In this document: positions 2,348-37,001 of the stretch, piece by piece
Numbering within the stretch: position 1 is the first letter of the stretch
Layout: the number at the start of each line of letters is the position of its first letter
Assembly (NCBI GenBank): GCA_963761725.1
Contig: CAVXHP010000006.1
Location: 381,534-445,533, forward strand
DNA from: an uncultured Cytophagales bacterium
GTDB taxonomy: Bacteria; Bacteroidota; Bacteroidia; Cytophagales; Bernardetiaceae
DNA length: 64,000 nucleotides
Direction: 5' to 3'
Position numbers and translations under genes: made by a program
Notes under the pieces: model-generated
What the model saw: only the letters and a program-made list of their open reading frames with translations
Told to the model about the DNA's origin: nothing
The model's database searches: none

Positions 2348-4447
2348 TCACTCATCACTATTTAGAAGGTCTTTTGCGATTATTTCCAGATACTCATGAT
2401 ACGGACTTAGTTTGGGAAGTGCATTCTTTATTTTCAGATACAATTGCTCTGCGTAGAGCTTGTCATTTTTTTCCATTGCTTGTGATAATTCTGTCAAATA
2501 TTTATCCATTATAGGCGATATTTCGGTTACGTTTCCTAAGAGACGAGCCAAAATTTCGCTAATTGTCCAAGCCCAAGGCATTCCTTCCAGTAGAAGAGGA
2601 TGAGTAATAATTCGCTCATCTTCCCATTCTAAAGCAAGAATATTATTTGAAGCCATAGACTGAATCATAAAAGGACTTTGCGTTCCTATTATAAATTGTG
2701 TATTTGGAAATATTTCTGAGAGACGAGGAATAAGAGTACGCTGCAAATTAGGACTTAAATGTACATCAATCTCATCAATCAACACAATCGCCTGTATGCT
2801 TTCTGGATGTTCCAAATCAAAGGGATGTTGAATGGCTCGTACACACAAATCCAATATCCAACTAAAAACAGTCTGAAAACCATCAGACATAACTGAAAGA
2901 AGAGCTTCTCCAGTAGAGGTCTGAAAGACAAAATCTCCATCTTTATTCAAACCCAAAAGTCCTTTTTCTAATTTTTCATCGTGTTTGTTTTCTGTGATTT
3001 CTTTGGAGGGTGCAAGCAGTCTATTAACTATTTTTCGGATAGTTTCTATATTATTTTCAATATAAGAATACGTGCTATGGTCATCTTCACTCTTCAAAAA
3101 ACCATTTTCTCCAAATAGAGATGCAATGGGAGCAAAAGTACGATGCTGAAAATCATAGTTTTTGAGTCCCTTTTTTCCTGTACTATAGCCTAAAATTAAT
3201 AAGTTTTCACGTATTATCTCAAAATAACGTTTATGACTTCCTGTATGCATGACACCATTTCTGTCAATCTTGAACTTTATATTTACTTCTTCTCCAAATC
3301 CTTGCAAACGTAGCACAAGGTGTCCTGCATCTTTATTTCCGTGTATAACATTTTCCCAGCCATAATTAATTGGAGGTTTGGGAATATTAGAAAGACCCAT
3401 AGCAATGAGTTGAAGAATGGTTGATTTGCCTGTTCCATTTGTTCCAACGATAAGCGTAACATTTTCTTTTGTATGGATATGAGGTAAATCAATGGATAGT
3501 TTGTCAAAACACCTGATGTTTTTGATAAACATGGATTCTAAAATAAGCGTATTATCTTCACTTACTTTGTGTTCTTCTGGAAAATCAATAGTTAGGAAAG
3601 GCGTAATAGTCTCAATAAAATGAACTTGAACTTGTTCTAAGACACGCATCACTTCAAAGTCTTCACAATCATCTACAAAAAAATACTCAAAATTAAACAC
3701 CATATTTTTTCCCAACATAGAATGTGGTGTTCGCTGTGCAGCCATTGCATTCAATTCTGTCAATGCAGTTTCAAAATACTTTTGTAATAATGGAAATGGA
3801 GTTGGATAAAGAACAGTCTCTTCTAAAAGTTGAGTAGCAGATTCATATAACTTTTGGGTAATCTGACGAATAATTCGATGACGTGCTACTGCCGACGAAC
3901 CCATATTTATTTTATAAGCTGTAATAGTAGAAGCTGCACGCAAATTTCTTTTTATAGGTTGAAAATTACCATCTCTATCAATAGCAAGATATTTTTCTGG
4001 AACATCCAATTCAGGATTAATAATAAGAGGTTCTTCTGCCAAATGAATATCTGAATCAGCACGCCAAAGCATTCTATTTTCTGGAGGAGACTTTACTCGT
4101 TTATGCTTGTTCATTATTGGAAACTGACTATCTTCATAAAGTTTGCATTCTTCACAAACAGGTAAAAGGTTTGTCCATTCATAGATAAGCCAATAATACA
4201 GTTCTGGCGACCTATAATGGGTCAGAAAGGCAGTCGATTCCTCAATAGAAATTCCTGCTTCACAAAAAGCACATTTATTATAATGGATTTCGAGAAGTTT
4301 GCCCAATACATCTTGGTGCATCAAAATATCCAAACGAGGATAACCCACAAACTTTCCTATCTCCAGAAGTGTCTGAATAATTTCTTCAGTTTCTGGAGAT
4401 TGTAAAATAGCTGGAATATCATTCGGATTTTTTCGTACTGAAATCAT
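2348..4447 (-). CDS. fusion protein: N-terminal HNH-like Cys-rich (zinc-finger nuclease-like) domain plus C-terminal AAA_21/ABC-type P-loop ATPase; candidate defence protein
   Basis: 699-aa ORF. N-terminal region has H-x3-CxxC (HYNKCAFCE) and N-x5-CxxC (NLLPVCEECK), as in HNH nucleases. Walker A is GTNGTGKST, Walker B is VLIDEIDVHLSP, and IIGTQSP is an H-loop like the TTHSP motif of AAA_21 ATPases. Confidence 0.6.
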   Translation of the reverse strand: MISVRKNPNDIPAILQSPETEEIIQTLLEIGKFVGYPRLDILMHQDVLGKLLEIHYNKCAFCEAGISIEESTAFLTHYRSPELYYWLIYEWTNLLPVCEECKLYEDSQFPIMNKHKRVKSPPENRMLWRADSDIHLAEEPLIINPELDVPEKYLAIDRDGNFQPIKRNLRAASTITAYKINMGSSAVARHRIIRQITQKLYESATQLLEETVLYPTPFPLLQKYFETALTELNAMAAQRTPHSMLGKNMVFNFEYFFVDDCEDFEVMRVLEQVQVHFIETITPFLTIDFPEEHKVSEDNTLILESMFIKNIRCFDKLSIDLPHIHTKENVTLIVGTNGTGKSTILQLIAMGLSNIPKPPINYGWENVIHGNKDAGHLVLRLQGFGEEVNIKFKIDRNGVMHTGSHKRYFEIIRENLLILGYSTGKKGLKNYDFQHRTFAPIASLFGENGFLKSEDDHSTYSYIENNIETIRKIVNRLLAPSKEITENKHDEKLEKGLLGLNKDGDFVFQTSTGEALLSVMSDGFQTVFSWILDLCVRAIQHPFDLEHPESIQAIVLIDEIDVHLSPNLQRTLIPRLSEIFPNTQFIIGTQSPFMIQSMASNNILALEWEDERIITHPLLLEGMPWAWTISEILARLLGNVTEISPIMDKYLTELSQAMEKNDKLYAEQLYLKIKNALPKLSPYHEYLEIIAKDLLNSDE

Positions 4448-4504: not shown

Positions 4505-4847
4505 TTACTGTTCTGTATTCTGCTGACTTTCCTTCAAATAAAGAGCTAATTTTTCGCAAAGCTGATGAATTTCTTGTGCCATATATTCATCATTGGTAGC
4601 TCGCATAAGTGTATCAGCCATTCCACCCAAAATATTTATACTAAACCCTTTCATTTCCTCAACAGGCATGTCTTTTGTCCAAAGGTCTAAACGCAAGACA
4701 GTTTTTTTCATGGCCGTCCCAAATTGCTAAGGCAATTGCTTTTGCTTCTTCAAGTTGATTTCCTGTATCAGATGCTTTCCAAAATATTTTTTCTGGAAGG
4801 TCTTTGTCATCTAATTCTATACTAAAACGGATTTCAGATTGTTTCAT
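4505..4847 (-). pseudogene. gldC: gliding motility protein GldC, split by a +1 frameshift in an A7/T7 run (possible sequencing error)
   Basis: ORFs 4659..4847 and 4505..4711 together match GldC (MKQSEIRFSIELDDKDLPEKIFW...AIWDGHEK // RLDLWTKDMPVEEMK...MRATNDEYMA). The frames join at the gaaaaaaac homopolymer near 4694-4702. Confidence 0.75.
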
Positions 4848-4966
4848 TTTTTTGATTTATAATTTCTGTATCGTAATTTTCTTTAATTAAAAGAGGAACA
4901 CAAATTTACGAAAAAAAACCACCTTATTCTATACTTGAAAATTGAATAAGGTACTATTCATTCAAC

Positions 4967-5200
4967 ATGAGTGTCATTGGTAAAAATCAAAAAATCCGTC
5001 TATTAGCTACAGAGTAGCTTTACCTTGGTAGAACAAGAATAGAAATTGATTTAAAAAGCTACAGCGTAGCGTAACTTTATTTTTAATTGCCAATTGTAAA
5101 GTTTCGCTACGCTGTAGCTCTATTAAAATAGTGTTTTTGATGTTCTACCAAGGTTACGTTGCTCTGCAACTAAAAGTCAATACCTAACAATGACACTCAT
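4967..5200. repeat. MITE-like palindromic repeat, family A, copy 1
   Basis: ~234-bp element with terminal inverted repeats (atgagtgtcattgg ... caatgacactcat) and an internal long palindrome (agctacagcgtagcgtaacttt...aaagtttcgctacgctgtagct). Near-identical copies at 18990..19233 (inverted) and 37002..37234. Confidence 0.8.
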
Positions 5201-5239
5201 ATTGATTCATTGGTTCTATATGACTTTAGTTGCAAACTA

Positions 5240-5345
5240 AATCTTGTATTTTGTTCAAGTCTGTACCGAAGGTCTAATTTGAACAAAATAAGCCTTTTTG
5301 AGCTTTAAATACACATTTCAAACTGATCAGACCTTGCGGTGCAGA
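5240..5345. repeat. hairpin repeat, family B, copy 1
   Basis: ~105-bp element with inverted arms gtctgtaccgaaggtct / cagaccttgcggtgcagac and ttgttcaag/cttgaacaa. Second copy in reverse at 57640..57760. Confidence 0.7.
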
Positions 5346-5457: not shown

Positions 5458-7829
5458 CTATCTTCTGCTACCCGAATAGCTCATTGCTTCTCCTTTTCCA
5501 AAGGCGTAACTTACTCCAAAGGTTACAAAACGTCCACGCATTCCAAAATTATAGTTTTCGAAGGTAGGCTGATTTACAAAACTTTCTTGTATTCTTGATG
5601 CAAAAACATCTCTAATTCCTAAATTACCAACTACTTTTCCTTTAAGAAACTTCTTACGAATACCCAAATCCATAAAAGCAAAACCACTTTGTTTTCCTTG
5701 TACTGTTTCGAAGCTAGAACGGTAATTTCCAGCTATTTCAAAATCAATATCAGCAGGTAATTTTATTTTCGTGTCCAGACGAACAGACCATTGCGTTCCT
5801 GTAAAATCAAATTCTCGGCTTTCAAAAACTCCTCTTCGGTCAAAATACGTGTAATTAAAGTTACCATTAAAAGTAAGCCATTTAATAGGATTGTATTTTC
5901 CATTCGTTTCAAATCCAATAAGCGAATTTGTTCCAATATTTTGAGGTGTAGTAAAGGTAACATTATCTACAAAAGTAGAAACTCGTTCTACTACATCGGT
6001 CGTATATCTATGGTAAACACTAGAACTCATTGAAGCTTCTCCAAGTTCGTAGATACTTGTCAGTTCATAAGAGTCTGTAAATTCGGGTTGAAGGTCTGGG
6101 TTACCTGTACGAATATTAAAATTATTTCTGATATTAAAGAAAGGATTCAAATCCCACAATCTGGGTCTAAAAATACGTCTGGAGTATCCCGCTTGAAGTG
6201 CAAAATTTTCTGATGCTGTAAAGGAAGTATGTAAAGAAGGAAAAAGATTAGTAAAGTTTTGAGAATTAGATTCGTTTGTAGTTGTCAATTCTGTTTGAAG
6301 GTCTGTATTTTCTACACGCAAACCAGCTTTGATACCCCATATTTCAGTTTCAAAAGCTCCTGTTGCATACACTCCCAATACCTTCTGATTCCATTCAAAA
6401 TTATTGGTAAAATCCAAATTGCTTACATATTCTTATTTACAAAATCTTGTACTTCAAAATCATTTCCTACTCATTAATAACATACAATGCACCTGTTTCA
6501 AAAGTATATTTTTCTGTTATTGGATTGACATAATCTGCCTTAAAAGTATAATCTGTTTGGTCAAAAGTAGTAGCTGTAAGCTGATTACTATCTACATTTT
6601 CGCCTTCTAGTGTTCTATCAATAAAGACAGAAGAAAGGTCTTTTGCAAACGAACTTCCCAATGCACTTACTTGAAAAGTATGGTCTTCATTATTTTTGAA
6701 AGTTTTTGTCCAATTGAGTTCGTATTGCCATTTTGGGTTGGTAGCTTCTGTATCTTCATTACGCACCCACCTGGGAAATAGTATTATCATCTTCTAAAAA
6801 ACTAAAATTTGTTTCAGAAGGTTGGTCTTCTATTTCGTAGGCAAAGTTTCCTGAAAGTGTAAAGACATTGTACTCGTTTAGATGATAATCTGTACCTAAT
6901 CTGATATTGAAAAAGGTTTCGTTTCTAAACTCTTCTCCATCACTCAAAATAGTTTGTCCACTAATTAAATTTCGGTTGATGGCTTCTGTTTGTCTAGGTC
7001 TTGAGCGATGACCAATACCAAATTGAGTAAATAAATTAAACTTTTCAGTACGACGATTTATACTTCCTCCAAGACTATGATTAGCAGGAATACCTGTATT
7101 TGCAGAAATAGAACCATTCCAACCTTCCTTTGACTCCTTTTTAAGAACAATATTCAAAATTCCTGAGGTACCAGAAGCCTCATATTTTGCCGAAGGATTT
7201 GTAATTACTTCAATACTTTCAATCATATCTGCGGTAATAGTACCCAGTCCAGTACCACCATCTGTCAAGATAGAGGGTTTGCCATTGATAAGGATTTGTA
7301 CGCCAGCACTTCCACGCAAACTAATTTCTCCATCAATATTTACATTTACGGAAGGTACATTATTTAAAACTTCTAATGCACTAGCTCCCGTAGTGCTTAA
7401 GTCTTTTCCGACATTAAAAACACGTTTATCTAATTGAAAAGTGGTCTTGGAGACTTCTCCTTCTACTACTATTTGATCAAGCAGTTTCATATCTGGAGCA
7501 AGGGAAACAGTTCCCAAATTTACTTCATCACCTGAAATAGTAAATGCTGTTAGTGTCTTGGATTGATAACCCATAAAACTAATTTTTACATAAAAATTAG
7601 TTTGAGTAGTAGAGACAGAAAATGTTCCATCTTCGGCTGATATAACTCCTGTGATGAGTTCTTCTGTTCCTGTTTTGTAAAGTGCAACGGTAGCATAAGG
7701 AACAGGTTGAGCGGTTTCTTCTTCAACTAAATTGCCAAAGACTTCTATTTCTTGTTCTTGAGCAGTAGCAAAATTACTTCCTATAAAAAATAAGAATAAA
7801 CAAACTACGTGTAGTAAATAATTTTTCAT
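5458..7829 (-). pseudogene. TonB-dependent outer membrane receptor (CarboxypepD_reg-like N-domain plus plug plus barrel), split into three ORFs by two frameshifts
   Basis: ORF 6759..7829 carries a signal peptide, a carboxypeptidase-regulatory-like domain and plug motifs (ISLRGS...). ORFs 6467..6790 and 5458..6417 continue the beta-barrel. Frame changes at ~6760-6790 and ~6417-6467. Confidence 0.7.
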
Positions 7830-11327: not shown

Positions 11328-13112
11328 TTAATCACAATCATACACATATTGTGTAGTGCTTGTCGTGGTTGTTCCTGCTGCAATGATTGTAGCAACACTT
11401 GTACGCAATAATCCTTTTGCATCAATCGTATTATTTACTTCACCTTGACTTACACCATTTCCGTCCGTAACGACTGTTTTGAGAAGTTGACAATCTTTGT
11501 AAGTATTTACTTGCCTTTGAGTAAGAACGTCACTTGCATCAAAAGTTTCTACCAGTTTTGGGAAACTTCCTGTTGTATTTAGGAAATCAGAAGAAACTGT
11601 ATAGCCTGTTAATGCACCTGCTGGCGTATAAGAATCTGAACGAGTCAAACGTTTGTTTGTGTCATATGTATTGATTACATATGATGTTAGAGTTCCTGTT
11701 GCATCAAAATTATTTACTCTTACAGTACGATCTCCATTACTATACACATACTCAGCAGAACCTGTTGGGGTAGAACCGAATTTGGTTTCATCTTTTATTC
11801 TTCTTCCTTGTGCATCATATTGAATAGAAATAACTACGTTGCCAAAACCAGTTGCAGTAGTAATTGAGGAGAGATTTTTGACTCCATTCACAACCGTATA
11901 AGCATATGTTACAGTTATAGTTCCTGCTGCTGTTACTGATGTAGTTTTGGTTACATAACAATCAGGTAAATTACAAGGATTTCCTCCTCCTCCTGTTCCA
12001 GATGCAGCTTTTACAGTTACTTTCTTTGTTATTTCATTTGTTCCTACCGAATTTGTAACTACTAATTTTACATCAAAATCACCTGCTGCCGTAAAAGTAA
12101 ATTTTGGATTTTCCGCTGTTGAGCTAAAACTAGTCCCTGCTGCAGACCATTGATAAGAAGTTGCGTTTGTGCTTGTGTTTGTAAACGTTACTTCTTGTCC
12201 TGTTTCTGGACTAGCTGGAGAAAAACTAAATGCTGCAACAGGAGCTACTTGTGCAGCTTTTACAGTTACTTTTTTAGTTATTTCATTTGTTCCTACCGAA
12301 TTTGTAACTACTAATTTTACATCAAAATCACCTGCTGCCGTAAAGGTAAATTTTGGATTTTCTACTGTTGAGTTAAAACTGGTTCCTGCTGCTGACCATT
12401 GATAAGAAGTTGCATTTGTACTTGTATTTGTGAAAGTTACTTCTTGTCCTGTCTCTGGACTGGCTGGAGAAAAACTAAATGCCGCAACAGGAGCTACTTG
12501 TGCAGCCTTTACAGTTACTTTTTTAGTTATTTCATTTGTTCCTACCGAATTTGTAACTACTAATTTTACATCAAAATCACCTGCTGCCGTAAAAGTAAAT
12601 TTTGGATTTTCTACTGTTGAGCTAAAACTGGTTCCTGCTGCTGACCATTGATAAGAAGTTGCATTTGTGCTTGTGCTTGTAAATGTTACTTCTTGTCCTG
12701 TCTCTGGACTGGCTGGAGAAAAACTAAATGCTGCAACAGGTGCAGGTGGTGGTGGTGTATCTGCTGGAGCAACGCTAATTTGTTTGGTAACTGTCGTACT
12801 TCCACCTTCTCCTGTAGCTACTAATTTTATATCAAAAGTACCTACAGTAGTAAAAGTAAATGTTGGATTTTTTTCAGTAGAGTTGAAATTTGTTCCTGAC
12901 CAAACAAAAGAAGTTGCATTAGTACTTGTGTTAGTAAACGTAACAGCTTCGTTTACTTTCGGACTAACAGGAGTAAAAGAAAAATCTGCCGTTGGTGCTT
13001 TTGGTTTTTCCTCTTCTTCTTTTTCATCAGAACAGCTTGCTGCCACAAAGGAGAGCAAAACAAAAAAAAGGAAGACATTTTTTAATGTGTTTAGAAAGTG
13101 ATATGATTTCAT
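11328..13112 (-). CDS. secreted lipoprotein with four PKD-like domains (three near-identical tandem copies) and a C-terminal YD-repeat-like region
   Basis: Lipoprotein signal (LLSFVAASCSDE). An 83-aa unit (VAAFSFSPASPETGQEVTFTNTSTNATSYQWS...VTVKAAQVAP) repeats 3x almost identically. C-terminus has YD-like motifs (IQYDAQGRRI, YDTNKRLTRSDSY). Confidence 0.75.
   Translation of the reverse strand: MKSYHFLNTLKNVFLFFVLLSFVAASCSDEKEEEEKPKAPTADFSFTPVSPKVNEAVTFTNTSTNATSFVWSGTNFNSTEKNPTFTFTTVGTFDIKLVATGEGGSTTVTKQISVAPADTPPPPAPVAAFSFSPASPETGQEVTFTSTSTNATSYQWSAAGTSFSSTVENPKFTFTAAGDFDVKLVVTNSVGTNEITKKVTVKAAQVAPVAAFSFSPASPETGQEVTFTNTSTNATSYQWSAAGTSFNSTVENPKFTFTAAGDFDVKLVVTNSVGTNEITKKVTVKAAQVAPVAAFSFSPASPETGQEVTFTNTSTNATSYQWSAAGTSFSSTAENPKFTFTAAGDFDVKLVVTNSVGTNEITKKVTVKAASGTGGGGNPCNLPDCYVTKTTSVTAAGTITVTYAYTVVNGVKNLSSITTATGFGNVVISIQYDAQGRRIKDETKFGSTPTGSAEYVYSNGDRTVRVNNFDATGTLTSYVINTYDTNKRLTRSDSYTPAGALTGYTVSSDFLNTTGSFPKLVETFDASDVLTQRQVNTYKDCQLLKTVVTDGNGVSQGEVNNTIDAKGLLRTSVATIIAAGTTTTSTTQYVYDCD
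11990..12740. repeat. 3 x 249-bp near-identical tandem DNA repeat (PKD-domain units) inside CDS 11328..13112
   Basis: Antisense ORFs 12169.., 12430.. and 12667.. translate almost identically. Recurring landmarks are offset by 249 nt. Confidence 0.8.
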
Positions 13113-13854: not shown

Positions 13855-13982
13855 AAAAATAATTTTATTTGATAAAACAGTTTGAAAAAGATATTTTATT
13901 CAATTGAATATAGCAATTCGTAATTTTTAATTAGCTAAGCTGATTATTTAATAATTCGTAATCCGTAATTGTTCCATAGCTT

Positions 13983-15217: not shown

Positions 15218-15293
15218 AGTTATTAGTTATTAGTTATTAGTTATTAGTTATTAGTTATTAGTTATTAGTTATTAGTTATTAGTGCTGAACTAT
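15218..15293. repeat. (AGTTATT)n heptanucleotide microsatellite, ~10.5 units
   Basis: Perfect tandem agttatt repeats immediately after the ald stop codon. Confidence 0.9.
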
Positions 15294-15396: not shown

Positions 15397-16101
15397 ATGG
15401 CTAATTTTATTAAATCTCTTACTGGTCTTTTGGTTGTTCTTTTACTAGGATTTGGTGTTTATTATATCATTCTTCGAAAAGATGCAAAGGAATTATTGAC
15501 ACCAATAGAAACAGTTAGAGAAACTAATTTCAAAACTGTTTTGGAGGAAGTGGAAAGTTTAGGGAAATTAGAATTGGTAAAATATAATTTTAAAGATGTT
15601 GTCGAACACACGCAAAAAAACGGTTATAGTTCTGTTTTAGATTCAAAAGTGCTGCTGATTGTAGCTGGAGAAGCAGTTGGTTGTATGGATTTGACACGCA
15701 TAAAGACGGAAGATATTACGCAAGTAGGTGATTCTGTTTTTGTTCATTTGCCTGCTCCTGAACTATGTTATTATAAAATTGACCTTCAAAAATCTAAAGT
15801 TTATGATTCAGAGTCTTTGCCTTTTATTGCAGATGATAATTTGATAGGAGAAGCGTACGCAAAAGCAGAAAAACAAATTGAAAAAGCGGCTTTAGAATCT
15901 GGAATATTACTACAAACACAAGCAATGGCAAAAACTATGTTACAACCATTTTTGGAAAAAATTACTAAAAAAACCGTCTTCCTGACCTTTGAGCCTATTT
16001 CTACAAGCGAAAAAGTAAATCCTGAAAGTAAAAATAATTCTCAGAAAAATATATTAAATAATTCTACACCTATTCAGTCCAAAAGTTTGAATAAAGAGTA
16101 G
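15397..16101 (+). CDS. hypothetical membrane-anchored protein (possibly DUF4230-like)
   Basis: 234 aa. Single N-terminal TM helix (LTGLLVVLLLGFGVYYIIL), then a soluble domain. Start codon directly preceded by a cgtaattcgtaattg motif. Confidence 0.45.
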   Translation: MANFIKSLTGLLVVLLLGFGVYYIILRKDAKELLTPIETVRETNFKTVLEEVESLGKLELVKYNFKDVVEHTQKNGYSSVLDSKVLLIVAGEAVGCMDLTRIKTEDITQVGDSVFVHLPAPELCYYKIDLQKSKVYDSESLPFIADDNLIGEAYAKAEKQIEKAALESGILLQTQAMAKTMLQPFLEKITKKTVFLTFEPISTSEKVNPESKNNSQKNILNNSTPIQSKSLNKE

Positions 16102-16135
16102 ATTATGTTGAATCTATACTAAATGTCTTGTCAAA

Positions 16136-16924
16136 CTATTCTTCTATTTCTCCTATTGAGTTTATCTCTTCCTTCTGTTCTACTTTTTCTTCTGCTGTTT
16201 GTTTTCGTTCTTCATACAAAAAAGAAATATCAATCCAATAATTTTCTGGATTTTCCAAATCTATATAAATAGGAAGCGTTTCTCTTTGCTCCAAAAAGTC
16301 TGTTGGATCAGCAGCTAAAGGTTCACTTTTAAAAAGAAGTGTACTAGAATCTTCATCTCTTTTCCACTCGCACAAAATCACAAAAGCAGGTTTGTCTTGC
16401 AACATAATTTGTGGGTCTTGCACAATGGATTGAATTACACCTTCCAAAACACTTCCATTCTCTAAAAGCCATTTTTTACGATTGGCACGCAACCAAATCA
16501 AAAGTCCCCAAATAATTCCTCCTCCTATAAAAGCAACTCCTGTGATAGATAAAAAACTCATCCAAAACCATTCATAACGCACAATATGAGTATCATCAGG
16601 ATTGATAATATCATAATAAATCTCTACTACTTCTCCTAACTCGTAGCTAGAAAAACGAGAAACCTCGTGCCTTGCTTCTACCATTATCTTCTGACTATCC
16701 AACGCATAAAAACCAATAACAGGATATGTTTTATCTTCTGGGAGAGGTTTTATCTGGACTACTCTACCCAAAGTACGCTCGTATTTTGTCTGACGAATTT
16801 GTTCTTTATTCCAACTCTGAGCAGCCAGAACCAGAAAAACCAAACCTGTCAGAATAAGCGATAGAGCGAGATAAAATGCTGTTCTTTTCATTTTTGTTTT
16901 ACTTCTGTAGCCGATAGTTTTCAA
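16136..16924 (-). CDS. hypothetical membrane protein (two TM helices flanking a soluble domain, acidic C-terminus)
   Basis: 262-aa ORF with TM segments at ~15-35 and ~120-145. No confident family assignment. Confidence 0.45.
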   Translation of the reverse strand: MKTIGYRSKTKMKRTAFYLALSLILTGLVFLVLAAQSWNKEQIRQTKYERTLGRVVQIKPLPEDKTYPVIGFYALDSQKIMVEARHEVSRFSSYELGEVVEIYYDIINPDDTHIVRYEWFWMSFLSITGVAFIGGGIIWGLLIWLRANRKKWLLENGSVLEGVIQSIVQDPQIMLQDKPAFVILCEWKRDEDSSTLLFKSEPLAADPTDFLEQRETLPIYIDLENPENYWIDISFLYEERKQTAEEKVEQKEEINSIGEIEE

Positions 16925-17125
16925 CTTTCGACAAACTGTTTTCTGACAGCTAAAAACTGTCAGCTACATTATTTCTATAATTATGCAAAATACATAAATT
17001 TTGTTCACTTTTTTAGCATTTTATTTCGATTATTTGTTTCTCTTTTTCAGACTTACCAAACAAAAAACCCAACTCTGATAAGAACTGGGCTTGTTTTTGA
17101 AATCATCTCAAAATAAGAAGCTAGT

Positions 17126-17578
17126 TTATTTTGTCCCTCTAAATGCTAAAAAAGCCACACCACATGAAGTGGTAGAATTTTTGGGAAGAAAATCTAAGTA
17201 ATAAGGAGCTGTTCGATTACATTGAAAAGTAATAGTAGTATAGAATTTCCCTGAACTATTATCGTAATTAGAAGCGATAACTGTTCCTGAAAGTTCTTTG
17301 AAATTAGCAATAATACCATTTGCTCCACCCTCACTACTCAAAACAACAAGAGTATAAGTATTTCCTCTTGTCATGATTACAGTATAATTTCTAAAATTGT
17401 TACAGCCTCTACAAGTACGCTGAACACGATAACTCTTTGAGAGGCGATACCCGTTTTTGGATAAATCCCTTATAATTTTAGTTTGTGCTATTGAATCTAC
17501 ATCGCATTGAGCATTTACCTCAGAGATAGTAAAAACCACAAAGGCGAATAAACTACACAGAAAAAGTAAAATTTTCAT
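17126..17578 (-). CDS. hypothetical secreted Cys-containing protein
   Basis: 150 aa with N-terminal signal peptide (MKILLFLCSLFAFVVFTISEVNAQ) and 6 Cys. Confidence 0.4.
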   Translation of the reverse strand: MKILLFLCSLFAFVVFTISEVNAQCDVDSIAQTKIIRDLSKNGYRLSKSYRVQRTCRGCNNFRNYTVIMTRGNTYTLVVLSSEGGANGIIANFKELSGTVIASNYDNSSGKFYTTITFQCNRTAPYYLDFLPKNSTTSCGVAFLAFRGTK

Positions 17579-17756
17579 ACTTATTTTTTTTTAGAATTAC
17601 GATGAAATAAACGTTTTGTCTATTCAGATATATAAAATACATTTCCTACTACAATTAAATTTCCTAGCCAAACTATTTGCATTAGCTTTTGCTTTGAATA
17701 ATTTTGAGAATGAAAGATAGCCATAATAAATTAGTTCTCAATTTTCCTAAAAAAAT

Positions 17757-18830
17757 TTAGTTTACTTCTTCAATAAATTCTTCAAATCCCTTACTCATTA
17801 CTGTTTTTATAGTTCCGTTATCGTCATAAATCAAAAATACTTCTGTATTTTCTAATTTCTCAATCAGTGCTAAGGCTTTATCTTTTCCCAAAACCATACA
17901 AGCCGTTCCCAGACCATCGGCAGTCATTGCATCGCTAGCCAAAATAGTTGCACTCAAAAGCGTATGTGAAACAGGATAACCCGTTTTTGGATTGATGATA
18001 TGAGGATATTTTTTACCTTCTCTGATATAAAACTTGCGGTAATTTCCAGAAGTTACTAAGGATTTGTTATTTAAAGTAACAATGGCTTGAAGCTCTCTTT
18101 TCAAACTCTGATTTTCTTGATTACTGTCTTCTATGGGTTTGTCAATTCCTATTTTCCAACCTTTACCATCTGTTCCTGTTCCATTTGCTCGTACTTCTCC
18201 ACCAATTTCTACCATATAATTCGTTATATTTTTTTTCTCTAAAAATAAAGCAACTACATCAACTGCATAACCTTGAGCAATGGCATTAAAATTAAGTTCA
18301 ATATTACTTTTTGTCTTTTTGAGTGAAGTTTCATCAAACACAATATATTTATCAAAGCCTACAAATTCTAATAGAGAATCAATTTTATCAGACGGAATTT
18401 TTTCTGGTTCTTCTATTTCTCCAAAACCCCAAACACGAATAATAGGCGAAAGAGTTGGGTCAAAAGCTCCATCACTTATTTCAAAAATCTCTTTACTACT
18501 TTTCAGAACAGGATAAAAAAACTCGTTTTTAAAAATTATCGAACTATCAGAAGTTGATATTTTATTAAAAACAGAAATTTCAGAATCAGGAATATAGGTA
18601 GAAAGGCTTTGACTAAAAGCCACCAAAACAGAATCAAGAGCAATTTGATAGTTATTTCCTTTTTTAGAAATGTATTTTATAGTAAAAGTTGTTCCCTGCG
18701 TTTGTCCATAAACTTCATAGGTTTGCTCGTCGCTTGTCGTTTCTGTATCACGACATTTATACACCAAAAACATCAGCAGAATAAGTACACCTCCATAAAT
18801 TGCATTTCGATAATAATATTTTCTTTCCAT
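17757..18830 (-). CDS. apbE: FAD:protein FMN transferase (ApbE family)
   Basis: 357 aa with ApbE motifs: FDPTLSPI, AIAQGYAVD, VEIGGEV, HIINPKTGYP, SATILASDAMTADGLGTA. Confidence 0.85.
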   Translation of the reverse strand: MERKYYYRNAIYGGVLILLMFLVYKCRDTETTSDEQTYEVYGQTQGTTFTIKYISKKGNNYQIALDSVLVAFSQSLSTYIPDSEISVFNKISTSDSSIIFKNEFFYPVLKSSKEIFEISDGAFDPTLSPIIRVWGFGEIEEPEKIPSDKIDSLLEFVGFDKYIVFDETSLKKTKSNIELNFNAIAQGYAVDVVALFLEKKNITNYMVEIGGEVRANGTGTDGKGWKIGIDKPIEDSNQENQSLKRELQAIVTLNNKSLVTSGNYRKFYIREGKKYPHIINPKTGYPVSHTLLSATILASDAMTADGLGTACMVLGKDKALALIEKLENTEVFLIYDDNGTIKTVMSKGFEEFIEEVN

Positions 18831-18989
18831 TTTAATTTCTTCTTTTAGAGTTTTTTTGAAAATTGGGTAAGCAAAAATACAAACTATTCGTTTAAGATTT
18901 TTATAAGTATAAAGTTTATTAGTTTATACTTTAAAACATTCGTATCTCAATTTGTTTTATTAGAATAGAATCAAAACTATTTTTTCAAT

Positions 18990-19233
18990 ATGAGTGTCAT
19001 TTTTGAGTACTTGATTTTCAGTTGTAGAGCAACGTAACCTTTGTAGAACATCAAAAACGAGCTTTATCAGAGCTACAGAGTAGCGAAACCTTGTAACCTA
19101 TATGAAATTAGAATTAAAAATAAGGTTCCGCTACTCTGTAGCTTTTTAAATTAATTTTCTATTCTAATCTACAAAGGTTATGCTACTCTGTAGCTAAAAA
19201 ATGCCTATTTTGATTTTTATCAATGCCAATATT
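18990..19233. repeat. MITE-like palindromic repeat, family A, copy 2 (inverted orientation)
   Basis: Reverse complement aligns along its length with copies at 4967..5200 and 37002..37234 (gctacagagtagc..., ttctaccaaggttacgttgctct...). Confidence 0.8.
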
Positions 19234-19274
19234 TTTTAGAAACAATTTAATCAGAAACATTAAAAACAAACATC

Positions 19275-19919
19275 ATGGGAAAAACAGCCGTCATTGCAGG
19301 AGCTACAGGACTTATCGGACAAGAACTTATCAAATTGCTTTCAAAAGACAATAGATACGACAAAATTTTGGCACTTACTCGTAAAGCAAAAGCATCAGAT
19401 TTACCAAAATTAGAATACGTAGTTGTTGATTTTGACCATTTGCCTATTTATCAAGAAGAAATAAATGGAGATGATGCCTTTTGTGCCTTAGGAACGACAC
19501 GCCAAAAAGCGGGAAGTAAAGAGGCTTTTTACAAAGTTGATTATACCTACATTTGGGAATTTGGTAAAATAATGGCAAAAAACGATACTCAATCTTTTAC
19601 TTTAGTTTCATCAATGGGAGCAGATAAAGATTCGTTTTTTTATTACAATGAAGTAAAAGGAAAAATTGAAGATGCTATTTCTCAATTAGATTTTGAAAAA
19701 ATAACGATTGTTCGTCCTTCACTTTTATTGGGAGATAGAACAGAAGAGCGTTTTGGAGAAGGAATTGCACAAACTTTTTCTAAACTTTTTAGTCCAATCA
19801 TTCCAGCAAAATATGAAGGAATTGAGGCTTCACAAGTGGCAAAAGCAATGATAAAAGCTGCAAATGATGAGAAGAAAGAGTTAGAAATTATTGAAAATGA
19901 TGAGCTGCTGAAAATGTAG
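19275..19919 (+). CDS. NAD(P)H-binding atypical SDR family oxidoreductase/epimerase-like protein
   Basis: 214 aa. Rossmann motif AVIAGATGLIGQEL, YbjT/HTATIP2-like. Confidence 0.7.
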   Translation: MGKTAVIAGATGLIGQELIKLLSKDNRYDKILALTRKAKASDLPKLEYVVVDFDHLPIYQEEINGDDAFCALGTTRQKAGSKEAFYKVDYTYIWEFGKIMAKNDTQSFTLVSSMGADKDSFFYYNEVKGKIEDAISQLDFEKITIVRPSLLLGDRTEERFGEGIAQTFSKLFSPIIPAKYEGIEASQVAKAMIKAANDEKKELEIIENDELLKM

Positions 19920-20038
19920 TTTTTGATTGTTGGTGTCGCTTCGCTAAAATATCAACAATGGTAAAGTTTGATTGACATAAAAAATAGACTTATCACAAAT
20001 TTTGATTTTATGGTAAGTCTATTTTTTGTTGTATGATT

Positions 20039-20090
20039 TTCGAAGACTAAAGTCTTCGGTACATTTTCTCACGCTAAAGTGTGAGCTACA
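20039..20090. repeat. REP-like double-hairpin repeat, family C
   Basis: cgaagactaaagtcttcggtacattttctcacgctaaagtgtgagctaca. Related copies at 20866..20898, 20903..20935 and 31231..31281 (inverted). Confidence 0.7.
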
Positions 20091-20823
20091 TTTTTTTTGG
20101 TTTGTAATATCCATCTCTTTCTTCATCTATTTGTCCTCCTTCGTAAGCACACGTTCCCATTCTAGGAGAATTTACGACAGGCATTTTTGCATAATCCTCA
20201 AAATCTTTACACTTTTTTGCGTGTTTTTTGGCGCATTTTTTACAAAAAAATCCATCATCGTACATGTGAATTCCACAAATTTCCTCTGCAGGTTCTTTCT
20301 CACAAATTCGGCAAAGAATAGGTAATGGTTCGTTACGAGAAATTAAAACAATATTATCTGATTGAAGTGGTAGAGTATATTGATCTAGAACTTTAATTTT
20401 AAAATCAGTTGTAGAACCAAAATCATATTCATAATCAAGTACTAGTCCTTTTTCAAAAACTTTTGACACTTTTGTTGTCATCGGTTTTGTGTTTGGCTCA
20501 AATCCAAAACCAAAATCATCTCTCATATCCATAATCGTAACTTTAGATTTTACTCTAAAACTACTCATGTGTCCACAACATTCCAACCAAATTGCTCTAA
20601 AAAAATCATCTAATTCATCAAAATCGGTTGTACTTTCTACTGCCAAAACCAAAAACATTTCGGCTGCCGTTATAGTAAGATGATAATATTTAGCTTTGTT
20701 TTTGTTACCTTTCTCTAGCTCTTTTTCCATTTTTTTGAGATGCGTAGAAACGTGTCTGCTCATTCCTTGTTTGCTTATTGTTTCGCTACAATACAGGCAA
20801 ACTCCTTCTGATTTTAATGCCAT
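20086..20823 (-). CDS. hypothetical Cys-rich protein (possible zinc-binding; weak resemblance to pRiA4b ORF-3-like family)
   Basis: 245-aa ORF with CxxC pairs at both ends (CLYCSE..., CRICEK...CKKCAKKHAKKC). Flanked on both sides by family C repeats. Confidence 0.4.
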   Translation of the reverse strand: MALKSEGVCLYCSETISKQGMSRHVSTHLKKMEKELEKGNKNKAKYYHLTITAAEMFLVLAVESTTDFDELDDFFRAIWLECCGHMSSFRVKSKVTIMDMRDDFGFGFEPNTKPMTTKVSKVFEKGLVLDYEYDFGSTTDFKIKVLDQYTLPLQSDNIVLISRNEPLPILCRICEKEPAEEICGIHMYDDGFFCKKCAKKHAKKCKDFEDYAKMPVVNSPRMGTCAYEGGQIDEERDGYYKPKKM

Positions 20824-20865
20824 AATTTTTTTTGTTTAGAATATTAATCGCACCTTAAAAGGTAC

Positions 20866-20935
20866 GGTACATTTTCTCACGCTAGAGCGTAAGCTACATT
20901 TAATACATTTTCTCACGCTGAAGAGTGAGCTACAC
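20866..20935. repeat. two tandem family C repeat units upstream of gene 20086..20823
   Basis: ggtacattttctcacgctagagcgtaagctaca and atacattttctcacgctgaagagtgagctaca. Confidence 0.7.
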
Positions 20936-20939
20936 TTTT

Positions 20940-22568
20940 TTACAAAATCACTTCTTTTTCAAAAGTCTTCGTATTTACTCTCAAAATTTGATGATTATTT
21001 GTATCTGAAATATATAAATAATTTCCAATTAAAAGAACATCATTCGGTTCATTGAGTCCACTAATAATTGTTTTTACTCTATTTTTTTCTAAGTCCAAAA
21101 CTTTTATTTTTCCATTGTAGGTATCAGCAATATAAACTTGATTATCAGCATACAAAACACTTACAGGGTGCTGCAAAACTGCTTTTTGTGCCGTTCCATC
21201 TTCGTCTCCAAAATCAAAAAGTCCTGAACCAACAAGCGTTCTAACTTCCTTTTTTTGTAAATCTATCTGACGAATTGCACTCGCTTCTGAGTCGGCTACA
21301 TATAAGAAATTCTCAAACTGTGTAAGTCCACTTGGTTGATTAAAAGCTACTTTCTGAAAATCATCGCCATCTGTGAGCTGCTCTCTTCCACTTCCTGCAA
21401 AACGCTCAGTTTTATAATCCTGCAAATTCATTTTTAAGATTTGATGATTTCCAGCACTTGCGATGTACATTATATTTGGGTATTTTTTATCAATCAATAA
21501 ATCCCAAGGCGAATTTGGATTTACGTTTTCTCCCCACTTTTTATCTCCAAAATAATAACTTGTTTCGCCTGTTCCTGCAATCGTTTTGACAGTTTTGTTG
21601 ATTAAATCTGCTTCTTTTATTACATTATTTTTAGTATCAGCAATATATAATTTTTCTCCATTTGGAGATAAAGCTAATCCATGAGGTTCATAGAAACTTG
21701 TTTCCTGAAAACTTCCTTCTGTATTTCCTTTTTTAGAATTTCCAATAGTTTCAAATACTTTGCCTTTCAAATTTATTTTGATAATTCTATTATTTCCACT
21801 ATCAGCGATCCAGAAAGTAGGTTCATTATTATCATTCGCAGTAGTGTTTTCTTCTCCTTTTGCTTCTATTATTTTTGAGGGAAACATAAGTTCTTTTTTC
21901 TCTACTTTTGCAAGCTGAAATTCAAACTTTTGAGTATTTAATATTGATTTATTTTGATGAATAAGAGCTAAGATTTGATTTCTTGCATCTTCATAAAAAG
22001 TTTCTCCTGCACGCTGCCAAACTACTTTTTGGTCTGGAGAAATAAGTGTAAGCGTAGGCCAAGCACGAACAGCATAACTTTGCCAAACACTCATATCTGC
22101 ATCATTGATAACAGGATGATGAATTCCAAACTTTAAGGCAGCCTGACGAATTCGTTGTGTAGATTGTTCTGCACTAAATTTTGCTGAATGGATTCCAATT
22201 ATTACAAGTTCGTTTTCAAATTCTTTTTCTAATTTTTCAAGGTCTGGAATAATATGTTGGCAATTTATACATCCAAATGTCCAAAAATCTAATAAAACTA
22301 TTTTTCCTTTAAAGTCAGCTAATTTGTACGACTTTTCAGTATTTACCCAACCAAATTTTGTATCAATTTCGGGTGCAGTAGTGGGAGGAACAACCATATA
22401 TTTTGGACTTAATTTAATTACTTTTTGTGCTGTTTTGTCTTTATCTACTTCACTTGCAGAACCTTGTTTTTCACTACAAGAAATTAAGGCAAAACAAAAT
22501 AAAAGAGAGAAAAACAGTGTTTTTTTATTGTTTAAAGTACTGAGAATAGCAAACTTATGATTTTTCAT
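20940..22568 (-). CDS. lipoprotein fusing a thioredoxin-like TlpA/redoxin domain to an NHL-repeat beta-propeller
   Basis: 542 aa. Lipobox LISCSE. Redoxin motif IVLLDFWTFGCINCQHIIP...IIGIHSAKF. Then NHL-type repeats (YEPHGLALSPNGEKLYIAD, LYVADSEASAIRQID, VYIADTYNGKIKV). Confidence 0.75.
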   Translation of the reverse strand: MKNHKFAILSTLNNKKTLFFSLLFCFALISCSEKQGSASEVDKDKTAQKVIKLSPKYMVVPPTTAPEIDTKFGWVNTEKSYKLADFKGKIVLLDFWTFGCINCQHIIPDLEKLEKEFENELVIIGIHSAKFSAEQSTQRIRQAALKFGIHHPVINDADMSVWQSYAVRAWPTLTLISPDQKVVWQRAGETFYEDARNQILALIHQNKSILNTQKFEFQLAKVEKKELMFPSKIIEAKGEENTTANDNNEPTFWIADSGNNRIIKINLKGKVFETIGNSKKGNTEGSFQETSFYEPHGLALSPNGEKLYIADTKNNVIKEADLINKTVKTIAGTGETSYYFGDKKWGENVNPNSPWDLLIDKKYPNIMYIASAGNHQILKMNLQDYKTERFAGSGREQLTDGDDFQKVAFNQPSGLTQFENFLYVADSEASAIRQIDLQKKEVRTLVGSGLFDFGDEDGTAQKAVLQHPVSVLYADNQVYIADTYNGKIKVLDLEKNRVKTIISGLNEPNDVLLIGNYLYISDTNNHQILRVNTKTFEKEVIL

Positions 22569-22727
22569 TATTTATTATTTTAGTTAATTTTTTTGGTCCT
22601 GTTTGATGCAATTACGATTGTTGCAATATATTCTTTTCTGGCTTTTCTGAATTTCGTAGCTGTTTCTTTGACTTCATTATTTATAATCTGTAAAAATATC
22701 AAAATTGAAAAAGAATACAGAATTATA

Positions 22728-22805
22728 AAAAATTCTATATCCTTTTTTTGGTTTACTTTATATTTAACAGACTGGGAAGTCTGTTTTACAAAAAAAATAA
22801 TTATC
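22728..22805. repeat. ~78-bp direct repeat, left copy, bracketing the toxin-antitoxin segment
   Basis: aaaaattctatatcctttttttggtttactttatatttaacagactgggaagtctgtt... repeats at ~85% identity at 23467..23545. Confidence 0.75.
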
Positions 22806-22872
22806 TAACAAAAGTCTCTTAAGACTTCAATCAACTTTATTATTTCAGAGGGTAAAAGCGATGCAAATTTTG

Positions 22873-23140
22873 CTATGATGATAGGTTCTCAATAGTTACT
22901 ATTTTATTACACCTAACCTCACTTATTTTTGGTAATGGTCTGGATAAATATTGAATTTCTAAAAGAAATGAAAATATATCATTTCTTAGATTACTTGTTA
23001 TTGGACAAAGCAAATAATCATTATCTAAAGAATTTGAAATCTCATGCTTACAACAATTGCAGGTCGTCTTTTACTTTGAGAAAAATTATCAGAATAGGGA
23101 TAATTTACCCAAACTAAATCGCCTTGTTGGTATTTGCTCA
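22873..23140 (-). pseudogene. MazF/PemK-family toxin, frameshifted
   Basis: Hand-translated minus strand: MSKYQQGDLVWVNYPYSDNFSQSKRRPAIVVS... (PemK N-terminal signature). After a frameshift near 23040 it continues in another frame as ...DYLLCPITSNLRNDIFSFLLE...RCNKIVTIENLS. The ATG overlaps the upstream ORF stop (ATGA). Confidence 0.6.
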
Positions 23141-23395
23141 TTTATCTTGAAGTTGAGTTTCTTTAAAAAAATCGTCCCAAATGTTATCTTCTTCTGAATC
23201 CCAACTATTTTTGAAAGATTGCAAACTCAAATCTGTAAGCTCATCTATTTTTAATTCAGTTTCTACATCATCAATTTTTTCTACTTCTATATTTAATCGT
23301 TTAGCCATTTGAATTAAAATAGCTAAATCATTTAGGTTATTGGTTTTAAAAGATACATTCATAATTTTATCTAGTTGATTTTCACTAAAAATCAT
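23138..23395 (-). CDS. putative antitoxin partner of the MazF-like toxin (85 aa, family not recognised)
   Basis: Small acidic ORF immediately upstream of the toxin remnant, with its stop overlapping the toxin start in classic TA operon geometry. Confidence 0.4.
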   Translation of the reverse strand: MIFSENQLDKIMNVSFKTNNLNDLAILIQMAKRLNIEVEKIDDVETELKIDELTDLSLQSFKNSWDSEEDNIWDDFFKETQLQDK

Positions 23396-23466
23396 TTACT
23401 AATTCAATATACAAAAATCGTTTCAAATTTTCGTGTTTATCTACAAAAAAAGGATACAGAAATATG

Positions 23467-23545
23467 AAAAATTCTATATCCTTTTTTGATTTACTTTATA
23501 TTCAACAAATTAGGAAGTCTGTTATCCAAAAAAAATTAATTCAAA
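23467..23545. repeat. ~78-bp direct repeat, right copy
   Basis: aaaaattctatatccttttttgatttactttatattcaacaaattaggaagtctgttatcc... Extends into the purL stop codon. Confidence 0.75.
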
Positions 23546-25764
23546 TACTTCGGCAAAGTGGCCTCAAATTCTTCTCTTGCTTCATCTACCGAAAGCCAAA
23601 TATTTCCATCTATCTGACATACTTTTTCAGCAACTACACTTCCAAGATTTGAAAAATCTACATTATTAGTTTTAAGTATCGTTTCAAAATTTTCTTTCTT
23701 ATCTTGAGAAACCGAAACGACAACTCTACTCTGACTTTCCCCAAACCAAAACGCATCTTTACGAACTTTATGAGAAGTAGTCTTGACAGAAAAACCTAAC
23801 TCTTTACTGGCTGCCATTGCTGATTCTGTAAGGGTTACGAAAAGTCCACCGTCCGAAACATCATGAGCAGAAACGATAAGTTTGTTTTTGATAAGCTCTA
23901 AAATCGTTTTTTGAAGTTTTGCTTCTTCTTCCAAATCAATAAACGGAGCAGGAGAGGCTTTGTATTTGTGATAGGAATACAAATATTCGGATGAAGAAAT
24001 ATCATTTCTTGATGTTCCTAACTGATAAATAATATCGCCTTCATTTTTAAAATCTAATGTCATTTTGAGTTTAATATCCTCCAAAAGACCCAACATTCCG
24101 ATGGTAGGCGTAGGAAAAACAGGACCTTCATCAGAAGATTGATTATAAAAACTCACATTTCCACCCGTTACAGGCGTTTTCAGTTTTTCACAAGCTGCTC
24201 TCATTCCCTTTATTGCTCCCACAAAATGCCAATATACTTCTGGAATATACGGATTTCCAAAATTCAAACAATTCGTAATCGCAACAGGCTCGCCACCACT
24301 ACAAACAATATTTCTTGCAGCTTCACAAACGGCTATTATCGTTCCTTTTTCTGGGTCTGAATTTACATAACGAGAATTACAATCTACCGAAATAACAATA
24401 TTTTTATTTGTTCCTTTTACGTTTACAATCGCTGCATCAGAAGGCTGATTGGTAGAAGTATTTGCCGTTCCGACCATTGAATCATACTGTTCTGCAATCC
24501 AACGACGAGAGGCAATATTTGGATGACCAATTAAAAATTTAGCAATTTCTGGTAATTTTTCGTCTTCTGGCTCTTCTATTTCGTCAATCTGAAACTGTTG
24601 ATATTCACTAAAATAAGCTGGTTCGGTATATTCTCTGTGATAAACGGGTGCACCACCACCCAAAACTAAATCATCGGCAGGAACATCAGCCACCAACTCA
24701 TCGTTTACATAAAATTCTAAACGCTTCGAATCTGTAACTACTCCAATTTGAGCACAATTCAAATCCCACTTATCAAAGATAGCTTGTAATTCGGCTTCTT
24801 TTCCTTTCTTAATAACAATAAGCATACGTTCTTGAGATTCTGAAAGCAAAATCTCAAAAGGCTGCATATTTTTTTGTCTTGTCGGAACTTTATCCAAATA
24901 GATTTTCATTCCGTGTTCTCCTTTTGCACTCATTTCGGAAGTTGAACACGTAATTCCTGCTGCTCCCATGTCTTGGATTCCTATCAAATGACCTGTTGCG
25001 ATAGCTTCCAAGGTAGCTTCTAAAAGCAGTTTTTCTTGGAAAGGGTCGCCTACTTGTACGGCAGGAAGGTCTTTTATCGAATCATCTGAAATATCTTTTG
25101 AGGCAAATGAAGCACCATGAATTCCATCTTTTCCTGTTGCAGAACCTACAATATAAACTGGATTCCCTACGCCATACGAAATAGCAGAGGCAATTTTGTC
25201 TGTTTCTACAATTCCTGCTGAAAAAGCATTTACTAACGGATTTACATTATAGGATTCATCAAAATAAACTTCTCCTCCTACTGTCGGGATTCCAAAGGCA
25301 TTTCCATAATCTCCAATTCCTCTTACTACCCCTTTCACTAACCATTGCGTTTTTGGAGAAGTGATATTACCAAAACGGAGAGAATTAAGTTGTGCAATCG
25401 GTCTTGCTCCCATCGTGAAAATATCTCTATTTATTCCTCCTACACCTGTTGCTGCACCTTGGTAGGGTTCTAATGCTGACGGATGGTTATGCGATTCAAT
25501 TTTGAAACTACATGCCAAACCATCTCCAATATCCACCAAACCAGCGTTTTCTTCTCCTGCTTCTACAAGCATTCGTTCTGATTTTTTGGGAAGTGTTTTG
25601 AGCCAAACAATAGAATTTTTATAAGAACAGTGTTCTGACCACATAACAGAAAAAATACTGAGTTCAGTAAAATTAGGCTTCCTACCTAGAATTTCTTCTA
25701 TTTTGATAAACTCTTCTGCCGTAAGTCCTAGTTTTTGTGCTGTTTCGGTTGTCGTGATTTCCAT
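23536..25764 (-). CDS. purL: phosphoribosylformylglycinamidine synthase subunit PurL (FGAM synthase II)
   Basis: 742 aa. N-terminus [40 protein letters not shown] and AIR-synthase-related domains throughout. Confidence 0.95.
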
Positions 25765-28004: not shown

Positions 28005-28200
28005 AAAATTTTGAATATTTTCAGATTAATGCTTCTATTACGAATAATATAATGCAATTCTGTTTCAAAACTTATTTTATTTGGCTAGCATCTAATAAAA
28101 GTTTTACATAATTTTGCACAACGGCAAAAACGTTTATTCTACTGTTTTCGTTATATACCTTTAATTATTCATCAAATTTATTTAAAAATCAATCCTAACT

Positions 28201-31223: not shown

Positions 31224-31230
31224 CACACCT

Positions 31231-31281: not shown

Positions 31282-31288
31282 AAAATAG

Positions 31289-36976: not shown

Positions 36977-37001
36977 GTTTAAATATTATTTCTACTTCAA
37001 T

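Follow-up and report, generated by a model that had tools for sequence, protein, structure and literature searches.

Three copies of one non-coding element of ∼240 bp, the middle one (c2) inverted, lie in the window, by which we mean the whole 64-kb stretch of DNA analysed here, from an uncultured Cytophagales bacterium. The copies are very probably AT-rich, non-autonomous DNA transposons, as the original prediction, which read them as miniature transposable elements with inverted repeats (MITEs), had proposed: their termini are conserved, all four copies collected (three in the window and one in a related genome) are flanked by target-site duplications (TSDs) of 7 bp, and the site of c2 is found empty in another strain. 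This adds a recently active MITE family, with its ends, its TSD and an empty allele documented, to a poorly sampled lineage of uncultured Cytophagales. Among bacterial mobile elements it is of an ordinary kind, and it brings in no new kind of biology.

Copies of the element

The three copies were identified by alignment, and a whole-window repeat search agrees; the exact limits of the element were taken from the comparison with the empty site together with the multi-copy alignment (Table 1). The places first proposed for the copies proved right, with limits that reach four bases further out at the left end. Pairwise identity is 80–90% among the copies of the window and 82–93% between these and the fourth copy (in locus L002, see below), and c2 is the outlier in divergence, with a central loop that is 10 nt longer. 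The GC content of the copies is 0.31–0.335 (genome GC 0.32). Sequences flanking the copies are unrelated to each other, and the limits of the element are sharp and identical in all copies.

Table 1. Coordinates of the element copies, of the modules of c1 and of the target-site duplications (window positions unless a locus is named)
Feature	Position	Strand	Remarks
Element copy 1 (c1)	4963-5204	+	242 bp; both TIRs intact; 4-copy alignment; nhmmer E 2e-79
Element copy 2 (c2)	18986-19230	-	245 bp; recent insertion; empty-site alignments, 4-copy alignment, nhmmer
Element copy 3 (c3)	36998-37237	+	240 bp; perfect left TIR, decayed right TIR; alignment, nhmmer
Element copy in L002	L002 342-581	-	240 bp; both ends present; flanking repeat AATATTT
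c1 left TIR, CAACATGAGTGTCATTG	4963-4979	+	one mismatch to the consensus CAATATGAGTGTCATTG
c1 right TIR, CAATATGAGTGTCATTG on the minus strand	5188-5204	-	0 mismatches
Inner local hairpin H1, GCTAC-AGA-GTAGC	5006-5018	+	invariant in four of four copies
Box B, ACCTTGGTAGAAC	5022-5034	+	pairs with 5142-5154; one compensated pair in c2 (G-C to T-A)
Central stem-loop: GCTACAGCGTAGCG, 33-nt loop region, CGCTACGCTGTAGC	5058-5118	+	on the minus strand TTTTT follows the stem, a terminator-like look
Box B', GTTCTACCAAGGT	5142-5154	+	falls in the family's best-conserved block
Inner local hairpin H4, GTTGC-TCT-GCAAC	5158-5170	+	two compensated base pairs off the mirror image of H1
c1 left TSD, ATTCATT	4956-4962	.	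sequence reading; same 7-mer at 5205-5211
c1 right TSD, ATTCATT	5205-5211	.	directly followed by another, unrelated palindromic element (its GGTTCT end)
c2 left TSD, ATTTTTT	18979-18985	.	once in the empty-site contig L003, twice in the window
c2 right TSD, ATTTTTT	19231-19237	.	sequence reading and empty-site alignment
c3 left TSD, TCTACTT	36991-36997	.	direct repeat readable as 7-10 bp
c3 right TSD, TCTACTT	37238-37244	.	sequence reading

The element stands out clearly from the background of the window. A 20-nt core of the element occurs three times (0.00 expected), and all nine occurrences of the inner motif GCTACAGNGTAGC (0.05 expected) fall within the three copies. The terminal inverted repeat (TIR) CAATATGAGTGTCATTG is found at five ends of the three copies; the scan for it returned six matches (0.24 expected), two of which are 3-mismatch matches outside the copies. 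A search of the window by nhmmer with a profile built from the four copies gave exactly three matches, and no degenerate extra copies.

All three copies of the window are intergenic and have no coding capacity, both as predicted. No ORF of at least 30 aa lies within c1 or c2, and none that fits inside a copy is longer than a 44-aa frame of c3 with a TTG start, which is broken by stops in c1 and c2; no copy has a credible ORF. The right TSD of c2 ends 38 nt upstream of the ATG (19275) of a NAD-binding-domain gene, and c3 is located ∼20 nt downstream of the terminator hairpin of tuf. The three copies are clustered within 32 kb of the window (vs one core match in the 3.8-Mb contig of the related MAG that holds the fourth copy), which may be due to local hopping, a strain-specific burst or chance.

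Terminal inverted repeats, target-site duplications and an empty site

The TIR is 17 nt long (CAAYATGAGTGTCATTG), and c1 and the L002 copy have it at each end. Terminal inverted repeats had been proposed for the element and are indeed present; their length (17 nt) and their position, four bases further out, differ from the proposal, and c2 has only one canonical end (18986-19002). The opposite end of c2 is non-canonical: it reads ATTGGCATTGAT, aligns to positions 8–19 of a normal end (i.e. it is 7 nt short) and directly abuts a perfect TSD. Either a divergent subfamily with such an end is the active one, or insertion involved aberrant processing of the end; c2 is the most divergent copy although it is the recent insertion. 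The right TIR of c3 (AATAACATTCATATT) has two substitutions and lacks the terminal G, and because this last base of the element is missing, the duplication of c3 can be read as 7 to 10 bp.

Direct repeats of 7 bp flank four out of four copies (c1, c2, c3 and the L002 copy), and A or T makes up 25 of the 28 bases of the TSDs. At a GC content of 0.32, we calculate a probability of ∼1e-4 per copy that seven out of seven positions agree by chance. Conserved boundaries and target-site duplications had been set beforehand as the test of a mobile element, and both were found, as conserved termini and as 7-bp flanking direct repeats in four copies.

The most direct evidence comes from an insertion polymorphism. 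Through the gene adjoining c2 we reached an ENA metagenome contig (L003) that aligns to positions 15500-28303 of the window, with 98.4–99.8% identity over 11.4 kb. This contig has no copy of the element at the place of c2; it has an empty site with a single ATTTTTT, reading ...CTATTTTTTAGAAAC... where the window reads ...CTATTTTTT, the 245-bp element and ATTTTTTAGAAAC.... The flanks of the site are 100% identical between the two over the aligned 186 + 53 nt, and the insertion is exactly 252 bp, that is, the 245-bp element plus 7 bp. A Logan assembly from a more distant relative (L037) also lacks c2 in the same intergenic region; therefore a gain of c2 in the strain of the window is more parsimonious than a precise loss in L003. 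c2 was inserted recently in the lineage of the window, and the empty site with its single target is direct and decisive evidence of transposition. The description of the family as actively dispersed thus holds as far as recent activity is concerned, which is shown by the presence and absence of c2 in strains that are ∼99% identical.

The same observations bear on a reading in which the copies arose by segmental duplication or recombination and are no transposable element at all. With only three copies in the 64 kb of the window and few found outside it, the count would suit this explanation, but the limits are sharp and identical in all copies with unrelated flanks, each copy has its own 7-bp duplication, and the polymorphic site differs by exactly the element plus 7 bp. 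We reject segmental duplication on the per-copy TSDs and the exact empty site, and consider it to have virtually no chance of being right.

For the other copies the comparison is with more distant sequences. In two syntenic loci of ∼80% nucleotide identity (L035 and L036) the spacer between tuf and the M28 peptidase gene is 221 bp long and holds no element: the conserved terminator hairpin of tuf is followed by unrelated sequence, and the absence of c3 is thus seen in diverged relatives only. The nearest relatives of the flanking genes have at most 88% amino acid identity for the M28 peptidase and at most 72% for the TonB-type receptor on the side of c1. The fourth copy was found in an uncultured Cytophagales MAG (L002; CAVRCG010000004.1), with both ends and a perfect 7-bp duplication, AATATTT. 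Because its GC content is the same as that of the window and its tetranucleotide signature correlates with that of the window as well as parts of the window do with each other (r = 0.985), L002 is taken to come from the same or a very close organism.

Interior architecture and predicted fold

From the TIR inwards the element consists of an unmirrored A-rich spacer, a local hairpin (GCTAC-AGA-GTAGC), a box (ACCTTGGTAGAAC), a spacer and the central stem, after which the mirror modules follow in reversed order. The central long stem is formed by AGCTACAGCGTAGCG-AAC-TTT and its mirror. To call this interior almost perfectly self-complementary, as was done at first, is an overstatement: the element is a modular palindrome, in which the arms of c1 match at 89 of 111 aligned positions (∼80%), plus 20 gap columns, and the complementary positions cluster in blocks, namely the TIR, ACCTTGGTAGAAC and, at the centre, AGCTACAGCGTAGCG-AAC-TTT. 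The predicted folding into a hairpin is well supported: the folds match this modular order and are far more stable than those of shuffled sequences. Folded as RNA, one strand of c1 is predicted to reach -97 kcal/mol (z -11.4 against shuffles) and the other -104 kcal/mol (z -12.8), and the single-stranded DNA folds of the three copies have z-scores of -10.3, -5.7 and -4.5. In these DNA predictions, the outer small hairpins pair within themselves and stand out as side arms.

The 13-nt motif GCTAC-N3-GTAGC is found in the window only inside the three copies. H4 differs from the mirror image of H1 by four transitions that form two compensated pairs, such that the local hairpin is kept and the long-range pairing is weaker. 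These compensated changes (n = 4 copies) may reflect selection that favours the small hairpins, or templated repair inside a quasi-palindrome.

Could the element be primarily a structured non-coding RNA gene or a cis-regulatory hairpin (an sRNA or terminator cassette), that is, an exapted MITE under selection for RNA structure whose spread is secondary? The predicted fold is very stable on both strands, a terminator-like GCTACNCTGTAGC followed by TTTTT is present on the minus strand of the element in c1 and c2 (in c1 this strand is also that of the flanking genes), and compensated pairs are seen in box B (one) and between H1 and H4 (two). There are also precedents, as sRNAs and terminators derived from MITEs are known in other bacteria (PMC10969869). 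Several observations speak against this reading, however: the arms have no strand bias of G:U vs A:C mismatches (5/6, 7/4, 6/7 and 5/10), the consensus fold has a covariation term close to 0 (+0.44) with one out of 65 pairs compensated, no copy has a conserved Bacteroidetes-type promoter (TAnnTTTG), the orientation of the copies relative to the neighbouring genes is inconsistent, and templated repair can keep the symmetry of a palindrome without selection. A search of Rfam (gathering and E-value thresholds) returned no family, with only sub-threshold matches to generic hairpins (miRNA precursors). We give the RNA reading a slight chance.

The small hairpins also invite a comparison with REP, BIME and REPIN sequences and their RAYT transposases, with which the element shares an extragenic location, a palindromic structure and GTAG-containing small hairpins arranged as inverted pairs. 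Under such a reading, a REP-associated tyrosine (HUH) transposase would have spread the element, itself a compound of small palindromic units with a GTAG-type head. Each arm does contain small GTAGC/GCTAC hairpins and a box GGTAGAAC, the same genome has an unrelated family whose small hairpins precede (G/C)TACA (8 units over 5 sites vs 0.14 expected), and the two compensated pairs between H1 and H4 look as if the small hairpins matter. But HUH/Y1 transposition (IS200/IS605, RAYTs) leaves no target-site duplication, whereas the present element has 7-bp duplications at four out of four copies and a single target in the empty site, which largely refute this reading. The element differs further in its long (17-nt) TIRs, in a unit of ∼240 bp in place of a 20–40-nt imperfect palindrome with a conserved GTAG head, in an apparently low copy number (one real core match among the species-representative genomes) against the tens to hundreds of copies of REP-type units, and in that no RAYT gene was found among the 10 window ORFs scanned. 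A REP- or BIME-like nature, offered at first as the alternative to a MITE, is thus disfavoured by the TSDs and in our view highly improbable.

Searches for further copies and for a parent element

We searched for further copies in several collections. Among species-representative genomes (∼185,000 species, one genome each) a 19-base invariant core of the element retrieved one true further copy (that of L002) and one chance match. A metagenome scan with an 18-base core gave no true copy, all nine matches being chance matches that cover the pattern alone; in viral contigs the TIR pattern had 22 matches, all by chance, and a two-arm pattern had none. A BLASTN search of a plasmid collection with the element returned no match. 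As other copies might have been miscalled as small ORFs, the translated element was also searched against protein databases, which yielded no word-sharing candidate and one irrelevant tandem-repeat protein. A high copy number is accordingly not confirmed, with three copies in the window, one more in ∼185,000 species-representative genomes and none in the metagenome and viral scans. On sequence comparison the family appears to be new and narrowly distributed, while the kind of element is well known.

An insertion sequence (IS) with matching terminal inverted repeats, which the original prediction had named as a thing to look for, was not found: there is no autonomous IS with such ends in the window (TIR scan) or in any fetched locus. 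Among 10 candidate ORFs of the window no transposase domain was detected (Pfam), and no match to a Y1 transposase either.

Comparison with known elements

Prokaryotic MITEs are defined as elements shorter than 500 bp with TIRs of 4–30 bp and flanking direct repeats, AT-rich and able to form a stable stem-loop (PMC10969869). The copies described here are 240–245 bp long and contain no transposase gene; they have 17-nt TIRs (one end is decayed in c3 and non-canonical in c2) and a fixed 7-bp TSD (four out of four); c2 is absent from L003 and L037; and the GC content of 0.31–0.335, the intergenic location and the fold z-scores of -4.5 to -12.8 agree with the remaining features. Two points count against the MITE reading: a recent copy (c2) with one canonical TIR is not predicted by a simple two-TIR model, and few copies are known (three in the window, one elsewhere), with no matching IS in the window or the fetched loci.

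With known prokaryotic MITEs (e.g. Correia/CREE of Neisseria, RUP of S. pneumoniae, the QMITEs of Coxiella and MITEAba12) the element shares a length below 500 bp, TIRs, a TSD, the lack of a transposase, AT-richness, intergenic location, a long stem-loop and insertion polymorphism between strains. It differs from them in that it has no sequence similarity to anything retrieved, in that its interior is made of symmetric small-hairpin modules, in an apparently low copy number here, and in that a parent IS was not found in the window or the fetched loci. Correia elements and MITEs derived from IS630/Tc1-mariner duplicate a TA dinucleotide, whereas the present element duplicates 7 bp and none of its TSDs is a duplicated TA.

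Taxonomically, the nearest analogue is MITECca01, from the Cardinium endosymbiont of Oedothorax gibbosus; MITECca01 is abundant, is derived from an identified parent IS, ISCca4 (IS982 family), and keeps 5'-AGMTTGTW-3' beside its left repeat (PMC9769881). The two elements share a host of the order Cytophagales, a length of ∼240 bp, a lineage-restricted distribution and the lack of a transposase; they differ in that AGMTTGTW, the adjacent motif by which the two were compared, is absent beside the left TIR of the present element.

An IS4-type parent was considered from the TSD length and the ends. The ISPepr1 subgroup of IS4 has 7–8-bp direct repeats, AT-rich targets and the end consensus YT-AA-YTT---A (5'-CT), and the other IS4 subgroups have 5'-CA ends with 8–13-bp repeats (PMC2266710). 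ISPepr1 is the only tabulated IS4 subgroup that combines 7–8-bp repeats with an AT-rich target, as seen in our element (7-bp TSD, 25/28 A or T), but its consensus YT-AA-YTT---A does not match CAAYATGAGTGTCATTG, the element ending in CAAYATGAGTGTC; the other subgroups share the 5'-CA start and not the repeat length. An IS4-subgroup parent was rejected, as the ISPepr1 consensus misfits CAAYATGAG (PMC2266710).

A model for the movement of the element

DDE transposons make a staggered cut in the target, their ends are joined to it, and gap repair leaves a target duplication. Our MITE family was presumably moved in this manner by a DDE transposase supplied in trans; we infer both the class of the enzyme and its action in trans. 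The transposase, most likely of DDE type, would be encoded elsewhere in the genome and bind both ends of the element. It would cut the target with a 7-nt stagger, the ends of the element would be joined to the target, and repair of the gaps would yield the 7-bp duplication. The two GCTAC-N3-GTAGC-type hairpins per arm and the ACCTTGGTAGAAC box are candidate subterminal sites for protein binding or structure formation. Whenever the element is transcribed or single-stranded, the symmetric modules would fold it into a long hairpin, and a terminator-like activity on one strand may be a by-product.

A more specific version of this model has a small but real chance of being correct. The transposase would then be of an uncatalogued type that makes 7-bp duplications from 5'-CAAYATGAG ends, the inner hairpins would be functional, and the second palindromic family of this genome (see below) would perhaps be moved likewise. 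If so, the GCTAC-N3-GTAGC hairpins would be recognition or regulatory structures, not passive remnants of a palindrome, and the transposition of c2 with one canonical end could also be accounted for.

Whatever the enzyme, the ends of the element are a precise query for its transposase. The element is also a marker of strain-level variation, and its presence can break up or mislead assemblies and gene calling.

Other repeats and neighbouring features

A second, unrelated family of palindromic, MITE-like sequences is found at window positions 5212-5335 and ∼57588-57795, with the core GGTCTGTACCGAAGGTCTGAC...GTCAGACCTTCGGTACAGAC; one copy (GGTTCT...) begins immediately after the right TSD of c1. 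A 216-bp copy of this family in L003 (6827-7043) has the ends GGTTGTTTGACAATTTTTGCAC / GTGCAAAAATTGTCAGAGAACC and is bordered by seven T on the left and nine T on the right. This copy is absent at ∼22588 of the window, so that the second family is also polymorphic between the two strains; a GGTCCTGTTTGA stretch at this place may be the remnant of a deletion. The second family may be moved in the same way as the MITE family.

We observed other differences between the window and its relatives. L003 (∼7180-7310) lacks a segment of ∼740 bp (22790-23530) that in the window holds an 85-aa ORF (23138-23395). The segment is bounded by direct repeats of ∼95 nt (22702-22798 and 23444-23536), and the difference fits a deletion or an insertion via these flanking repeats. 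The intergenic region upstream of a histidine-kinase gene (window 25882-26112, L003 9660-9823) is highly diverged, with several indels, between strains that are otherwise 98–99% identical. Between c3 and the M28 peptidase gene, ∼700 bp (37245-37940) have no counterpart in the 221-bp spacer of L035 and L036; they hold fragmentary small ORFs only, including a 60-aa signal-peptide-like ORF (37297-37479).

Small hairpin units, often in tandem, consist of a variable 6-nt stem, the loop CTAAAG, the complementary stem and (G/C)TACA, usually with T-runs. There are 8 such units at 5 intergenic sites (20041-20095, 20849-20935, 31230-31283, 44063-44086 and 44200-44222; 0.14 expected), and their stems vary yet stay complementary, which gives them a REP-like or terminator-like look. 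Other repeats of the window include three imperfect direct repeats of ∼130 nt (43958-44312) between recA (42748-43908) and the next gene, each with the small hairpin GCAGAACGTAAGCGATTTACGTT and partly conserved in L035; a 55-nt sequence repeated with 93% identity in two intergenic places far from each other (13917-13971 and 52123-52177), reading TTCGTAATTTTTA.TTAGCTA.GCTGATTATTT...CGTAATTCGTAATCCGTAATTG; three to four tandem 249-nt coding repeats (12003-12949) inside a 594-aa ORF (11328-13112, minus strand); and a 7-nt microsatellite, (AGTTATT)n, at 15218-15284, just downstream of an alanine-dehydrogenase-like gene.

Several genes of the window are split into two or three overlapping ORFs (5458-7829, 4505-4847, 32616-34035 and 38222-39366) and are intact in relatives: those for a TonB-type receptor, a small protein that we take, from its sequence, to be GldC (putative gldC), NamZ and the M28 peptidase. 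Rather than marking pseudogenes, these splits probably stem from erroneous homopolymer indels in a long-read assembly. Adjoining c1 lies a gene on the minus strand (2348-4447) that may be of a defence type; its product of 699 aa has ATPase domains (AAA_21/AAA_15/AAA_23, with AbiEii-like / OLD-type matches).
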